A DNA stretch of 6,174 nucleotides from Candidatus Helarchaeota ASGARD archaeon Hel_GB_B (lineage in GTDB: Archaea > Asgardarchaeota > Lokiarchaeia > Helarchaeales > HEL-GB-B). Shown piece by piece: positions 386-5,587 of the stretch. Both the position numbers and the translations under genes were made by a program. How positions within the stretch are numbered: position 1 is the stretch's first letter; each line of letters opens with the position of its first letter. The notes under the pieces are model-generated. The model saw only the letters and a list, made by a program, of their open reading frames with translations, was not told the origin of the DNA and searched no databases. The stretch is from positions 1 to 6,174 of the forward strand of contig SUPR01000159.1 in NCBI GenBank assembly GCA_005191425.1. The letters are read 5' to 3'.

Positions 386-409
386 ATTAATAATAGAGGT
401 ATTATTAAT
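386..409. repeat. 10-bp perfect inverted repeat ATTAATAATA-gagg-TATTATTAAT in the intergenic region
   Basis: The arms at 386-395 and 400-409 are exact reverse complements. They are A/T only, so the function is uncertain. Confidence 0.5.
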
Positions 410-543
410 TTATTTAAGAGTATAATATAGAGTATTTTTTAAAAAAATGTTAATAAAATTTATTTTATTTACAAAATAAGCCAATAATATTAAGATTTAT
501 TGAAATCTAAAATAATTTTCTAATTTAGAAATAATTTTTAAAT

Positions 544-1110
544 TTAAAATCTCTTTTCCATTTCTATTTTAAATTTTTCAATATAGTCTTTAAACAATTT
601 TCGCTTAATTTCCCAATAATTAAATATTTCTTCAATAAATAGACTTGGAATAAATTTTATTAATTCTTGTTTTAAAATTCGCATTTTTCTAATATATTGG
701 ATTAAATAGAAATTTAATTGTGCATATTGTCTTTTTAAAAATTTTTTTGCAATTTCTATTTCTTTAATATTTATCAAAATATTAATTATATTTATCGATT
801 TTTTAATTAATTCAAAAATTTCATATTGAATTACTTGGATTATTGATTTTATTGTTAGTTTTATATTATTAATTATATCATTTCTTGATTTTTCATTCAA
901 TAATTTAAGTCTGGTTTTAAATCTATTTTTATTCTCATTATCATTTAGCTCATCAGAAATAGTGATAGCTAATTCATATAGACTTTTTAAATAATTAGTT
1001 TTGTTATCAAATGGTATATTTAGATTTTCTACTAATTTATCCTTTGGGCGATTCTTTATAAAAATAATTAGATCTTCATCATAATGATTTTGTTGTTTTG
1101 ATTTTGGCAT
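544..1110 (-). CDS. Hypothetical all-alpha-helical protein, 188 aa
   Basis: A 567-bp open frame is very unlikely by chance in ~80% AT DNA. It is co-oriented with its neighbours, is rich in I/K/L/E/N with amphipathic periodicity, and has no Gly, Cys, transmembrane segment or recognisable motif. Confidence 0.75.
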   Translation of the reverse strand: MPKSKQQNHYDEDLIIFIKNRPKDKLVENLNIPFDNKTNYLKSLYELAITISDELNDNENKNRFKTRLKLLNEKSRNDIINNIKLTIKSIIQVIQYEIFELIKKSINIINILINIKEIEIAKKFLKRQYAQLNFYLIQYIRKMRILKQELIKFIPSLFIEEIFNYWEIKRKLFKDYIEKFKIEMEKRF

Positions 1111-1229: not shown

Positions 1230-3854
1230 TTAAGCATAATATCCAATACTAGTTTTAGTTTTTTGTATATTATCAACTGATTTTTTGAACATATTTATCA
1301 TTTCGGGGGTTAAGGAGGGTTTTACAATTTTCATTGCTTTAATAAAATCCTCTTCAGTAATTCTGGTATTAATATCATTATTTAATTTTCTGGTAAAAGC
1401 GATATGGGCTGCTTCACGTGTTAATTTTTCTAAATCTGAGCCCGTGTAATAATTTGTTTTTTCAGCAATAATAGAAAAATTGAAATTTTCTTTAAGGGGC
1501 ATTTTTTTAGTTTTAATTTTTAAAATTTCAATTCTTTCTTGTTCATTAGGGGGTGGTACTATTATAATATACTGGATTTGATTACTAGCTTTAAGAACTT
1601 CTGGAATTCCTTCAAAATTAATTGTCTCACATATAAATAAAACTGGAGTTTCTTTCTTTATTTTTTCAATTTCATTTTGAATAAAAAGAGCGATTTCAAA
1701 TGATTCTATTGTTTCTGCACGTTCTAACAATATTATGGAGGGTGCTACACGTGCTGCATCTCTTATAAATTTTTTAAAATCACGTGGAGTATCTCCTCTA
1801 TATAAAAATACTTTTGATAATTCAAGTGCTGAATATCTGAAAAAATTTGCTTTTGTTTCGGTTGATAGAGCTTCAGCTAAAAGAGTTTTTCCAGTACCAG
1901 GTAAGCCATAAATAATTATACCTTTTTTAGGATTTATACCAAATTCAATTGATTCTTTATAATGAATTAATGGTTGAGCAACATGTTTTATTAAAAATTC
2001 TTTAACATCTTTTAATCCGCCTATATCATCCCAATAAACTGGGTTTATAATATGTTTTACAGGGGTTTTTCCAGTTCTAGAATATTTTTCAAAAGTTTCA
2101 TTAAATTCTTCAATATCTTCTGTTGATAGATCTGGATTAGTTAATTCAATAGTATTTAATAAATCATTCATACATATTTTTTCATATTTTCCTTTATTAA
2201 CAGCTTCAATAGCCTTATTTCTTTTAGTGGTATCACAGATATAAGCTATTTCTGCACCAGTATAATTTTCAGTTATTTTTGCCAGATAATCAAAATCAAC
2301 ATCATCAGCTAATTCAACATTTTTAAGATGTACTTTAAAGATTTCTTTACGTGCTTTAAAATCAGGGGGAGGAATTGCTATTCTTTCATCAAATCTACCT
2401 GGCCTTAAAAAAGCAGGATCTATATCTTCAATCCTATTTGTAGCTCCAATTACCAATACTCGATCTTCTGGAGTCAATTCAGAAAATTCAGACAAGAAAG
2501 TAGATAATATTGTTGTTAAATAAGGGTGATCAGTTGTTTTTGCTCTCTGAAATGCTAAACCATCTAATTCATCAAAAAATAAAATAGTTGGAGGATTTAA
2601 TTTAGCAGTCGTAAATAATTCTCTAATTTTCTGTTCACTTTCACCTAACCATTTTGATAATAAATCTGGTGCACTAGCATATATAAAATTGGATTGTGTA
2701 GTGTCCGCTAAAACTTTTGCGATATATGTTTTACCACATCCAGGAGGACCAAATAATAGAATGCCGGTGGGCGCATGAACTCCATACTTCTCATACATAT
2801 CTTTTGAGGTTAACATAGAAACAATATCTTGTAATTGCTTTTTAACAGAATCATATCCACCTACATCATCCCATGTTAAATTACGTTTAGAAATTTTTTT
2901 CTCGATTGCACCATATCTTATTGCAGTTATCTCATATTGCTGAATTAGTGATTTAGTTAAAGATGGAATTATTTCATCAAAAGCATCTAAAAAATATTTC
3001 ATTGAGAGTTTTTTATTACTTTCAAATAATTCTTCTGCCCATTTTAATTCAGCAGTTCTTACCAATTTATATAAATCTTGAACAGAATAATTAACTGTTT
3101 TTTTAGCCAATAGATCAATATCTACATCATCATCTATAGGTTTATCACTCAGTATCTTTTCCAGAATCTCTTTTCTATCTTTTTCATTGGGAGGGTGAAC
3201 ATATATAATATCAGAAATATATTCTTGTTTTAAAATTAAAGGAGAAACTAATTCAGGATTATCAGTTACCATTATCAAAATAATGGGTTTATCAGAATTT
3301 TTTATTTTATGAATTGCACTCATTAATGTTATTAATGGATCTTGCATTCTAAAAGTAGCTAGATATATCTGTTTGGATTCAATAGGCGGAGCAATTATAT
3401 CAACTTCATTAATCATTATAATTGTAGGATCATTACTTCCAATCTCATCGATTTTAGAATTTAATTCTTCAATTTGTCGTATAGATACAATTTCCAAATT
3501 TGCTTTACATTCATGAGCTAAAGCATGAATCAATTCAGTTTTCATACACCCATCAGGACCAAAAAGAATTAATACTTTTACAGGCTCTACTTTTATACCT
3601 TTTTTAGATAATAATAGTGGATTTTGTACTTTCTGGACTAATTCTTTTTTAATATCATATAATCCAATTATATCATTCCATTTTCCCTTTAAATGAGATT
3701 TTGATGGAATAAATATATGTTCACATTCACGCCAATTTGAACAACAATATTTATCAACATAATCACTTGTGAGGCCTTCATTACATGCTTCACATAAGTA
3801 AAATATTTCATTAACAACCTTCTTTTTCTTTAAATATTCACAAAAATTTTTCAT
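1230..3854 (-). CDS. Cdc48/VCP-like classical-clade AAA ATPase with three tandem AAA modules, a Cys-rich N-terminus and a C-terminal HbYX-like tail
   Basis: Each module opens with W(D/N)D(I/V)(G/I)G: KWNDIIGL aa58, TWDDVGGY aa327, YWDDIGGL aa607. Walker A motifs are GPDGCMKT (99-106), GPPGCGKT (369-376) and GLPGTGKT (650-657). The middle module has pore loop SKWLGESE, Walker B ILFFDE, sensor-1 ATNR and second region of homology FLRPGRFD. Each module has a helical lid (PPxxxxRxEI...A.kT.nY(s/t)gxd/e). The chain ends IGYYA. Confidence 0.92.
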   Translation of the reverse strand: MKNFCEYLKKKKVVNEIFYLCEACNEGLTSDYVDKYCCSNWRECEHIFIPSKSHLKGKWNDIIGLYDIKKELVQKVQNPLLLSKKGIKVEPVKVLILFGPDGCMKTELIHALAHECKANLEIVSIRQIEELNSKIDEIGSNDPTIIMINEVDIIAPPIESKQIYLATFRMQDPLITLMSAIHKIKNSDKPIILIMVTDNPELVSPLILKQEYISDIIYVHPPNEKDRKEILEKILSDKPIDDDVDIDLLAKKTVNYSVQDLYKLVRTAELKWAEELFESNKKLSMKYFLDAFDEIIPSLTKSLIQQYEITAIRYGAIEKKISKRNLTWDDVGGYDSVKKQLQDIVSMLTSKDMYEKYGVHAPTGILLFGPPGCGKTYIAKVLADTTQSNFIYASAPDLLSKWLGESEQKIRELFTTAKLNPPTILFFDELDGLAFQRAKTTDHPYLTTILSTFLSEFSELTPEDRVLVIGATNRIEDIDPAFLRPGRFDERIAIPPPDFKARKEIFKVHLKNVELADDVDFDYLAKITENYTGAEIAYICDTTKRNKAIEAVNKGKYEKICMNDLLNTIELTNPDLSTEDIEEFNETFEKYSRTGKTPVKHIINPVYWDDIGGLKDVKEFLIKHVAQPLIHYKESIEFGINPKKGIIIYGLPGTGKTLLAEALSTETKANFFRYSALELSKVFLYRGDTPRDFKKFIRDAARVAPSIILLERAETIESFEIALFIQNEIEKIKKETPVLFICETINFEGIPEVLKASNQIQYIIIVPPPNEQERIEILKIKTKKMPLKENFNFSIIAEKTNYYTGSDLEKLTREAAHIAFTRKLNNDINTRITEEDFIKAMKIVKPSLTPEMINMFKKSVDNIQKTKTSIGYYA
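1269..2042 (-). other. AAA module 3 (aa ~605-862): Walker A intact, hydrolysis motifs lost
   Basis: GLPGTGKT is intact. Walker B reads IILLER (DE>ER), sensor-1 reads CETIN, and the Arg-finger region LKASNQIQY has no Arg. Confidence 0.85.
2079..2879 (-). other. AAA module 2 (aa ~326-592), catalytically intact
   Basis: GPPGCGKT, KWLG pore loop, ILFFDELD, GATNR, and LRPGRFD with both arginines (R484, R487). Confidence 0.92.
2910..3683 (-). other. AAA module 1 (aa ~58-315), degenerate
   Basis: Walker A GPDGCMKT (G>M before K), Walker B IIMINE (D>N), sensor-1 VTDNP, no Arg fingers (LILKQEYISD). The pore-loop-1 segment is shortened or absent. Confidence 0.8.
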
Positions 3855-3901: not shown

Positions 3902-5587
3902 TTATTTTTCATTACATCTTTGTTGAAGCAAAAATTCAATTATTTTTTCACATTTCTTAATATCTTTTTCACTATTTAATAGTTTAAAATATTTTTTAGC
4001 TATTTCAGCAAATTTCAAACTGGCTTCTATTTCTTTATTTTCATAAAAGAATTGAACACAATCTAAAAAGAAAAATGTCAATTTTATTGATTTTTCTCTA
4101 TAATTTAAAAAATTAGAAAATTGCAATAGATACTTTTTTAAAATACTTACAATTTTTGTATTATCTTTATCTAAAGGTATAATTGAATTACAAATATAAA
4201 AAGTATTAATGATGGTCTCAGTGAATAAATTTAAGAAATTATTTTCAATCTCAAGATTATTCATCAAATTAAATAACTGATTGAATTTATTATCTATTGA
4301 ATAGAACTCTTTATGTATCAAATGTTCTTTAATTTTTCTAGTAAATATTTTAAAATAATCAAATGATTCAATTATCAAATAAATTAATTTATTTTTAATA
4401 TTTAATGATAATTCATATCCAGGGAAAACCTCTAAAGATTTCAAAAATAAATTAATTTTAAAGTTTCCTAAATATATTGGATTATTTAATAAAACTTCAT
4501 TAACTACATTTCTATTAATCCAATTATCTAAGTGATTAAATATTTTTTCTGCATTTGATGATATGAAATTTTGTCTCCAATTTTCTTTATAATCTATATC
4601 CTCTAATATCTCTTTTAACTCGTCTTCAAATGGATTTTTGATGTTATCAAGATATTTAGATACTTTTTCAGTTATTAACTTAGAATTTTCAATTAAATCT
4701 TCATTTTCATTGAGGTAATTTAATATGTCATGAATTAAATGTCTTCCTAATAAATCATATACATTAATATTAAATTCTTCAATAGTTTTACTATAATTCT
4801 CAAAATCATCGATTAATGCCATAGTAAAATATTTTTTAGCTTCCACTAAATCTCCCATTTTTAATAATAATCTTCCTGCATTATATTCAGCTTTAGCATA
4901 ATCATTTTTATATTCAATTGCTTTTTTAAAATATTCTAAAGCTTTCTTAAAATCACCTTTTTTTTCATAAATTAGTCCAATATTATATATTGGATAATTT
5001 CTATTTTCATAAGATTCAATACTTGCTGCTCTTTCATAAGCTTCCATTGCTTTATTCAATTCATTTAGATCAAAATATGCATTACCCATATTATTCCATG
5101 CGTCCCCATAATCTGGATAAATTTCTACAGCTTTTTTATAACATTCAATAGCTTTATGATTGTCATCTTTGTTTCTATAAATATTACCTAAATTATACCA
5201 GCTCCACCTATAATTTGGATCTAATATTACTGCTTGTTTATAATATTTCATGGCAGTTTCATCATCATCATCCTCTTGTGCTTCAATCCCTTTATCATTT
5301 AAAATATATGGAGTAACCCCCAATTCTCTTAATTTATCTTTAATCATATCAATTATTTCATAAAATTTGTCTGTTAAATCGTTTTCTAATAAATAGTTCC
5401 AAAAATCAGGTTTTTTGTCTTGAATTTCATTATATAGTTCAATTACTTCTATTACTTTTGAAACAGCATTATCAAAACCATAATTTTCGAATTCGTCCTT
5501 GTCCAAATTTGTAAATTCAATTGCTGCTTTATAAAGTTTTTTTAGGTCATCAGTTTTTAATTTTTCAATTATCTCATCGATTTTCAT
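3902..5587 (-). CDS. Tetratricopeptide repeat (TPR) protein, 561 aa: ~90-aa helical N-terminus, five TPRs, ~300-aa helical C-terminal region
   Basis: 34-aa repeats with TPR consensus (W/Y-x-N-L-G...A..Y..A...P) at aa 93-126, 127-160, 161-194, 197-230 and 231-264 (nt ~5311-4796). Example: RWSWYNLGNIYRNKDDNHKAIECYKKAVEIYPDY. Confidence 0.9.
   Translation of the reverse strand: MKIDEIIEKLKTDDLKKLYKAAIEFTNLDKDEFENYGFDNAVSKVIEVIELYNEIQDKKPDFWNYLLENDLTDKFYEIIDMIKDKLRELGVTPYILNDKGIEAQEDDDDETAMKYYKQAVILDPNYRWSWYNLGNIYRNKDDNHKAIECYKKAVEIYPDYGDAWNNMGNAYFDLNELNKAMEAYERAASIESYENRNYPIYNIGLIYEKKGDFKKALEYFKKAIEYKNDYAKAEYNAGRLLLKMGDLVEAKKYFTMALIDDFENYSKTIEEFNINVYDLLGRHLIHDILNYLNENEDLIENSKLITEKVSKYLDNIKNPFEDELKEILEDIDYKENWRQNFISSNAEKIFNHLDNWINRNVVNEVLLNNPIYLGNFKINLFLKSLEVFPGYELSLNIKNKLIYLIIESFDYFKIFTRKIKEHLIHKEFYSIDNKFNQLFNLMNNLEIENNFLNLFTETIINTFYICNSIIPLDKDNTKIVSILKKYLLQFSNFLNYREKSIKLTFFFLDCVQFFYENKEIEASLKFAEIAKKYFKLLNSEKDIKKCEKIIEFLLQQRCNEK

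Follow-up and report, generated by a model that had tools for sequence, protein, structure and literature searches.

Does the multi-AAA ATPase encoded on a short contig of the Asgard archaeon Candidatus Helarchaeota archaeon Hel_GB_B dock on the 20S proteasome through its C-terminus? The window analysed here is the whole 6174-bp contig SUPR01000159.1 (C69) of a 3.54-Mb metagenome-assembled genome with 28% G+C (G000; 93.7% complete, 4.9% contaminated). The ATPase gene (P0001) encodes three AAA modules followed by a short tail, whose last residues, Tyr-Tyr-Ala, have the form hydrophobic residue-tyrosine-any residue (HbYX). We lean towards the reading that this tail docks a multi-ring ATPase on the 20S proteasome. 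Docking passes every sequence-level test applied and is the best-supported reading, although it is partly supported and not established. The protein is probably a proteasome cap that has not been described before.

The plus strand at positions 1230–1244 reads ttaagcataatatcc, and its reverse complement, GGA TAT TAT GCT TAA, specifies Gly-Tyr-Tyr-Ala and a stop codon. The original prediction, made from the letters of the DNA, had described an ATPase ending in KTKTSIGYYA-stop, which was borne out by translation of the complete gene from the minus strand. This end is not an assembly artefact, since a paralogue on another contig of the genome (C104) and the closest orthologues end in ...IGYYG at the same aligned position. 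The original prediction had also named conservation of the motif among homologues as its own check and as the point on which it could be refuted. In a census of 20 complete sequences of the ATPase family (36–70% identical, with three or four AAA modules), the penultimate residue was tyrosine in 19 and isoleucine in one. The third-last residue was hydrophobic in 19 of the 20 (Leu in eight, Tyr and Phe in five each, Ile and Pro in one each), and the last was Ser in 12, Gly in seven and Ala in one. The ends observed include GYYA, GYYG, KLYG, LFYG, SPYS, AIYS, RFYS, TLYS and QDLYS. Residues −4 and −5 vary, and the linker that joins the last helix to the motif changes in length by up to eight residues, which argues for selection on a tripeptide anchored at the C-terminus. 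A tripeptide that is conserved within a drifting tail, in two architectures and down to 36–40% identity, looks at the level of sequence as a functional C-terminal peptide should.

The genome served as background, with 2862 ATG-started open reading frames (ORFs) of at least 100 amino acids. Penultimate tyrosines were found in 4.2% of them, strict [VLIMFWY]-Y-X ends in 1.7% and ends of the looser published pattern [LVIMGAPFYW][FY]x in 5.0%; the Tyr-Tyr-Ala end fits both the strict and the looser pattern. HbYX frequencies reported elsewhere are 63 of 1484 proteins in Thermoplasma acidophilum and 133 of 3368 in Methanosarcina mazei (PMC3493965). Ends of the narrower form Hb-Y-[AGS] occurred in only 11 of the 2862 ORFs (0.38%), among them both paralogues of the ATPase family, the proteasome-activating nucleotidase PAN (..GFYS) and a PAC2-family, PbaB-like protein (..PPMYG).

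An AlphaFold2 model of the ATPase was built on an alignment (A1) of 14 family sequences with 46–70% identity to the window protein. It reached a mean predicted local distance difference test score (pLDDT) of 78 and a predicted template-modelling score (pTM) of 0.41. The last helix spans residues 850–865 and is followed by coil, with a pLDDT below 50 for residues 869–874 and a mean of 34 for the last block. Because the helix ends at residue 865 and the residues thereafter are modelled with such low confidence, the last nine residues are predicted to form a disordered, free tail behind the terminal helix of module 3, like the tails of PAN and Cdc48.

A receptor for such a tail appears to be encoded in the same genome. 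Five genes of the proteasome family were found, two for alpha (contigs C128 and C107) and three for beta subunits of the 20S particle. Both alpha subunits (238 and 244 amino acids) contain the gate motifs YDR..FSPxGR..QVEYA and the lysine of IEKI, and the 238-amino acid protein aligns end to end with the Archaeoglobus alpha subunit of the solved PAN–20S complexes (E-value 3e-87). The alpha residues Y8/D9, P17, G19, Y26 and K66 (T. acidophilum numbering; 9/10, 18, 20 and 27 in alignment A3, where the number of K66 is unchanged) are kept and are invariant in 22 related alpha subunits. Lys66 is the partner of the HbYX carboxylate (bioRxiv 10.1101/2021.04.28.441858). Judged by these residues, the genome encodes a cognate 20S proteasome with intact alpha pockets.

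The genome also encodes a separate bona fide PAN (403 amino acids, contig C29), and the PAN proteins of other genomes carrying the ATPase family are likewise HbYX-ended (FYS, IYM, FYA). The PAC2-family protein (C83:29241–29999, L061) was assigned to PF09754 with an E-value of 1.6e-40. The two recognisable 20S ligands of the genome thus end in the same manner as the ATPase. Covariation between the tails of the family and of PAN from the same genome was uninformative, since no strict match was found (FYS versus YYA/YYG, IYM versus PYS, FYA versus LYS). A complex prediction with two copies of the cognate alpha subunit (A3) and the last 275 residues of the ATPase (A2) was run without controls and returned 'no answer' with a score of 0.00, which speaks neither for nor against docking. 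Further HbYX-like ends were noticed in the genome. A DUF2299 protein of 180 amino acids and unassigned function (C148:19214–19756, L062) ends in ..IPFYG, and three Cdc48-like proteins (contigs C2, C107 and C162) end in ..KPQYG, ..HMPYT and ..KYTKR; of these three ends, only one conforms to the published HbYX pattern. Ends of the form Hb-Phe-Val (..RLFV or ..QFV) are common among Cdc48 hits from Asgard archaea.

The domain composition of the ATPase was read from Pfam, which recognised three AAA stretches (PF00004) and AAA_lid_3 (two matched stretches, best at residues 791–837), and from the motifs in A1. Module 2 shows GPPGCGKT as Walker A, the pore loop KWLG, Walker B FFDELD, the sensor-1 motif ATN and the Arg fingers RPGRFD. 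The motifs GPPGCGKT, KWLG, DELD, ATN and RPGRFD are invariant in the family, the module as a whole is almost invariant, and by these signatures it lacks none of the motifs of an active unfoldase ring. Module 1 is degenerate, with GPDGCMKT as Walker A and INEVD as Walker B, and lacks a pore loop and Arg fingers (invariant stretch KQEYIS); its Walker A lysine is invariant across A1. The decay of this module seems limited to the clade of the window protein, in which M, E, L or Q takes the place of the Walker A glycine before the lysine and Asn that of the Walker B Asp; more distant family members retain GPDGCGKS and DEID. Module 3 has kept an intact Walker A motif (GLPGTGKT; GxxGxGK[ST] in the family), its Walker B reads IILLER, CET stands in place of the sensor-1 motif ATN, and the Arg fingers are missing. 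The original prediction had called this module hydrolysis-dead, and the motifs agree. The Walker A lysine is present and the Walker B Asp-Glu pair, the sensor-1 Asn and the Arg fingers are absent family-wide. Module 3 is therefore predicted to bind nucleotide without hydrolysing it, and the dead third ring holds across the family, as the motif losses extend throughout A1. With only the middle module catalytically complete, the ring next to the 20S would be non-hydrolytic. At the N-terminus, a region of about 50 amino acids with four cysteines, for which a Pfam search gave no match, takes the place of the N-domain of Cdc48 or the coiled-coil/OB domain of PAN.

The ATPase matched the known archaeal models below their thresholds. 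The best NCBIfam model, CDC48 (TIGR01243), scored 485.8 bits with a cut-off of 802.65, and the PAN models TIGR01242 and NF003069 scored 380.5 and 404.9 bits, both below their 500-bit cut-offs. Pfam found AAA and lid domains only, and neither the double-psi barrel and beta-clam domains of Cdc48 (PF02359, PF02933) nor an OB or coiled-coil domain. In precomputed Pfam lists, PF02359 and PF02933 are absent from the family members and both present in all Cdc48 hits. In a maximum likelihood tree of 54 modules, each module of the family formed its own fully supported clade outside Cdc48 D1, Cdc48 D2 and PAN, so the family is, as far as the tree tells, neither Cdc48 nor PAN. The active module joined Vps4 weakly (92/86), with long branches, and long branches also marked modules 1 and 3. 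The tree leaves the origin of the family unsettled, and the descriptions 'Cdc48 with an added ring' and 'PAN fusion' were rejected for this reason. A Foldseek search with the whole model returned p97/Cdc48 chains with about 30% identity and low TM-scores, which are explained by the unreliable predicted orientation of the modules towards each other (pTM 0.41), and added nothing to the sequence result.

A second architecture of about 1170 amino acids comprises four modules, one degenerate, two active and one dead (P0009–P0013 and P0015; L008 8001–11507), and ends in ..QDLYS or ..HEFYS. The two active modules are sisters in the tree, which indicates a duplication of the motor ring within the four-module lineage. 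The family is rare. A profile search of 1.84 billion cluster representatives at 50% identity retrieved two full-length clusters (877 and 1172 amino acids) and a fragment before the score dropped from 1454 to 659 bits, and the proteins beyond this drop match module 2 only. The family occurs in seven of the 400 species-representative genomes of the phylum, distributed over four genera, with two copies in the genome of the window (C69 and C104). The nearest protein relatives are labelled Helarchaeota, Lokiarchaeota or Promethearchaeota. A full-text literature search on HbYX ends in Asgard archaea, archaeal proteins with three AAA modules and three-tiered AAA hexamers brought up no earlier account of the family.

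If the tail docks on the 20S, the protein would work as follows. By homology, a classic-clade AAA+ unfoldase with three stacked modules would assemble into a hexamer of three rings, of which the middle one alone would hydrolyse ATP and pull on the substrate. The tail would act as in PAN, archaeal Cdc48/VAT, AMA, Rpt2/3/5 and PbaB. The pockets between 20S alpha subunits have Lys66 at their base, and this residue would form a pair with the carboxylate at the end of the tail, with the tyrosine stabilising the gate in its open state. The ATPase would thus cap the 20S, and unfolded chains could pass through the passive third ring into the protease. The assembly into hexamers, the docking, the opening of the gate and the passage of substrate through the inactive ring are inferred. 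Experiments on other archaeal proteins are in line with such a role for the motif. In M. mazei, all five of the five HbYX-bearing AAA proteins stimulated the 20S and two proteins without the motif did not, and deletion of the last 12 residues of T. acidophilum CDC48, including HbYX, abolished activation (PMC3493965). Forouzan et al. (2012; PMC3493965) showed that archaeal CDC48 and AMA with HbYX ends bind the 20S and stimulate it, and ProEnd likewise added PAN-2 (MJ1494) as an HbYX proteasome regulator (PMC11475706).

Several points weigh against docking. Binding to the 20S is a prediction from sequence. One member of the family ends in S-Y-I-G, without a penultimate tyrosine, and the 19 of 20 overstates the independence of the observations, because the members are related and amount to fewer than 19 independent cases. 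An additional cap is not required by the genome, which already has PAN and at least one HbYX-like Cdc48. Contact with the 20S would be made by a hydrolysis-dead ring with a loosely conserved pore loop, and we know of no characterised proteasomal ATPase with such a build. The Leu-Tyr-Gly end of eukaryotic p97 serves PUB/PUL cofactors, and its binding to the 20S is debated (PMC10641518). Finally, genes for a tetratricopeptide repeat (TPR) protein and for a helical protein always travel with the ATPase gene, and either product could be the real ligand of the tail.

These two partners are fused in the window, where a single gene (P0002) precedes the ATPase gene (Table 1). The fused gene takes the same position at the C104 paralogue, L006 and L014, and the TPR and helical halves are separate genes in more distant loci. 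The split helical protein (239–262 amino acids; 24–25% identical, E-values of about 1e-6 to 1e-7) is encoded directly upstream of the ATPase in L010 and L013, small ORFs or a gap lie between both genes in L008/L017 and L016, and in L015 the helical and the TPR gene flank the ATPase gene on opposite sides. The split TPR protein (276–292 amino acids; 40–44% identical, E-values of 1e-51 to 1e-57) is encoded convergently just downstream of the ATPase in L007 and L010. The four-module locus L008 has a TPR-like gene some 2 kb upstream. Pairwise BLAST and tblastn comparisons are the basis for regarding the partner genes as homologous. A helical gene accompanies the multi-AAA gene at every locus with enough flanking DNA. 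TPR-like ORFs make up only 21 of the 2862 in the genome, which argues that the association is not due to chance, and by gene order the TPR protein, the helical protein and the ATPase constitute a conserved gene trio linked by gene fusion. A homologue search with the helical half of P0002 in a large protein collection found only the protein itself, and Pfam gave nothing significant for this half or its split homologues. The model of P0002 (pLDDT 93.8) matched generic TPR proteins over residues 37–274 in a fold search. Its TPR part superposes on Hop TPR1, CHIP and Sti1 with Z-scores of 16–18, a result that is generic for TPRs. On the entry face of the ATPase, the partners could act as adaptors for substrate, a role that would be compatible with docking of the tail on the 20S.

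In the Lokiarchaeota locus L007, a gene for an Arf/Gtr1-RagA-like GTPase (7053–7982) lies 18 bp upstream of the ATPase gene, between it and the helical gene, and a HEAT-repeat gene follows the convergent TPR gene. In the window, an ORF cut off at the contig end (3–296, minus strand) gave a faint longin match below threshold (Fuz_longin_1, E-value 0.058).

The cassette is present in a second full copy on contig C104 (L011), consisting of the TPR-helical fusion, the ATPase and a gene for 206 amino acids. The C104 cassette is orthologous to the Helarchaeota locus L006; the window copy belongs to a more divergent lineage and has no closer relative in the databases. In a bin with 4.9% contamination, both contigs may stem from one organism or from two.

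Table 1. Features of the window and of related loci. Positions refer to the window (C69) unless a locus is named.
Feature	Position	Strand	Basis and remarks
Multi-AAA ATPase gene (P0001)	1230..3854	(-)	ORF, 874 aa, ends ...NIQKTKTSIGYYA
N-terminal region with invariant Cys C5, C21, C37, C44	3705..3854	(-)	A1; low-confidence model
AAA module 1, residues ~57-317, degenerate	2904..3686	(-)	A1 and domain parse
AAA module 2, residues ~326-595, fully canonical	2070..2879	(-)	Pfam, NCBIfam, A1 and domain parse
AAA module 3, residues ~605-865	1260..2042	(-)	Pfam AAA and AAA_lid_3, A1 and domain parse
Flexible tail, residues 866-874 (KTKTSIGYYA region), after the last helix	1233..1259	(-)	AlphaFold2 model
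Last four codons G871-Y872-Y873-A874 and TAA stop; Hb-Y-X (Y-Y-A) end	1230..1244	(-)	Translation
P0002, 561 aa, N-terminal TPR solenoid and C-terminal all-helical domain	3902..5587	(-)	47 bp upstream of the ATPase gene, co-directional
P0003, 188 aa, no known family	544..1110	(-)	Downstream, co-directional; 47%-identical gene downstream of the C104 paralogue
C104 TPR-helical fusion, 576 aa	L011 6332-8062		
C104 ATPase paralogue, 878 aa	L011 8091-10727		71% identical; ends IGYYG
C104 gene, 206 aa	L011 10841-11461		47% identical to window ORF 544-1110
Split partner genes	L007 6331-7050, 10638-11468		
Split partner genes	L010 7155-7943, 10674-11552		
Split partner genes	L008 6625-7374, 4412-6058		
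Split partner gene	L013 about 398-1099		
Split partner genes	L015		
Split partner gene	L016 and L017 83-829		

The tail might serve as a docking peptide for a cofactor, most likely the adjacent TPR or helical partner, in the way the LYG end of p97 serves PUB and PUL (helical-repeat) domains. We regard this as rather unlikely, and it is still the strongest competitor of 20S docking. The helical protein is encoded upstream of the ATPase or in the upstream fusion in the window, C104, L006, L007, L008/L017, L010 and L013–L016, with a related TPR gene nearby in most of them, and the TPR part of P0002 superposes on peptide-binding TPR domains. The four-module end ..QDLYS resembles the ends of eukaryotic Cdc48. 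Known carboxylate clamps of TPR domains, however, bind acidic EEVD-type or SKL-type ends and not Hb-Tyr-small ones. Adaptors of AAA proteins usually sit at the N-terminal, substrate-entry side, an arrangement compatible with a tail on the 20S, and the known 20S ligands of the genome, PAN and PAC2, carry the same Hb-Y-[S/G] end. Genome searches for PUB (PF09409) and PUL (PF08324) found nothing here, and as they detected nothing in the control genomes either, they do not demonstrate that these domains are absent.

Alternatively, the terminal tyrosine could have a structural or regulatory function within the hexamer, packing on the neighbouring subunit or the D3 lid or tuning the ATPase, and would then need no external partner. 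A weak match to the Vps4 C-terminal oligomerisation domain (residues 831–857, E-value 2.4e-5) and the weak grouping of the active module with Vps4 (92/86, on a long branch) point in this direction. In the monomer model, however, the last nine residues are unpacked (pLDDT of about 34), an unconserved linker varying by up to eight residues is ill suited to a fixed contact, and a motif that has to sit right at the C-terminus is the hallmark of carboxylate-dependent binding in a pocket, which makes this alternative quite improbable. A functionless coincidence is scarcely credible, for although 1.7% to 5% of the ORFs in the genome end in an HbYX-like manner and published backgrounds are similar, the penultimate tyrosine persists in 19 of 20 sequences, in two architectures and down to 36–40% identity, while the neighbouring positions drift.

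If docking on the 20S holds, the protein would join the known archaeal network of HbYX-bearing AAA ATPases on the 20S, consisting of PAN, Cdc48, AMA and PAN-2 (PMC3493965; PMC11475706), as a new member of different build, with a stack of three or four rings, a catalytically dead one of which faces the protease, a four-cysteine N-terminus and TPR and helical partner genes. Such a protein would provide a test case for a motor that pushes its substrate into a protease by way of a passive ring. Asgard archaea are the closest known relatives of eukaryotes, and docking would imply a wider range of regulatory-particle designs predating eukaryotes. A bolder version, which we think has a minor chance of being right, pictures an alternative Asgard 20S cap: a three- or four-tier hexamer with its motor ring or rings in the middle of the stack, docking via an inert, nucleotide-binding ring with a eukaryote-like Y-Y-A/G tail and served by a TPR-helical partner (fused here, split elsewhere) in a lid- or adaptor-like role. 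This would amount to an independent archaeal multi-part regulatory particle. Should the tail bind the helical-repeat neighbour instead, it would be an archaeal counterpart of the recognition between the p97 C-terminal tail and its cofactors.

Among known systems, archaeal CDC48/VAT is similar in being a stacked-ring, classic-clade unfoldase with a flexible Hb-Tyr-X tail behind the last module, and both the best NCBIfam model (TIGR01243) and the best solved structural matches (p97/Cdc48 chains) of the window ATPase belong to this group. Barthelme and Sauer reportedly described archaeal Cdc48 acting with the 20S as a proteasomal ATPase. In contrast to the window ATPase, which has three modules (four in some relatives) and no such N-domain, CDC48/VAT has two modules and a double-psi-barrel N-domain. 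The D2 ring is the main motor of Cdc48, whereas the last ring of the window family is catalytically dead. In this respect NSF is closer, as its active D1 and non-hydrolytic D2, together with the TPR-like alpha-SNAP, resemble the inert, nucleotide-binding C-terminal ring and the helical-repeat partner found here. To our knowledge, NSF has no HbYX end and feeds no protease. Homology of the partners to SNAP was not found in fold searches, which covered the TPR part only. With p97/Cdc48 the family shares a Hb-Tyr-small end (LYG in p97; LYG, LYS, FYG and YYG in the family) on a flexible tail at the distal face of the last ring (PMC10641518). The cofactors of p97 are PUB/PUL proteins, whereas the candidates in the window are TPR or helical proteins of no known family.

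The resemblance to PAN and Rpt1–6 lies in module 2, which aligns over the whole AAA domain of PAN, and in the C-terminal HbYX motif. PAN has one AAA module and a coiled-coil/OB N-domain, while the window ATPase has three modules and neither of these domains. The Y-Y-A end is that of yeast Blm10 (SYYA) and of human Rpt5, for which the original prediction had correctly given YYA (native end ANLQYYA; bioRxiv 10.1101/2021.04.28.441858). Human 20S shows a 'Y-Phi' preference for a small residue at P4, Tyr at P3, Tyr or Phe at P2 and Ala or Thr at P1 (bioRxiv 10.1101/2021.04.28.441858), and the G-Y-Y-A of the window fits this preference. The closest parallels in the way they came to light are AMA and PAN-2 (MJ1494), lineage-restricted additional AAA ATPases that were first recognised as regulators of the proteasome by a conserved HbYX motif and were shown to activate the 20S (PMC3493965; PMC11475706). 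Both are single-module proteins of methanogens and Archaeoglobales, and AMA is set apart from the window family by its description. HbYX-bearing archaeal AAA ATPases are thus already known, and what is new is the multi-ring build and the dedicated partners: the family of the window has three or four modules, occurs in a few Asgard lineages and is accompanied by TPR and helical neighbours of its own.

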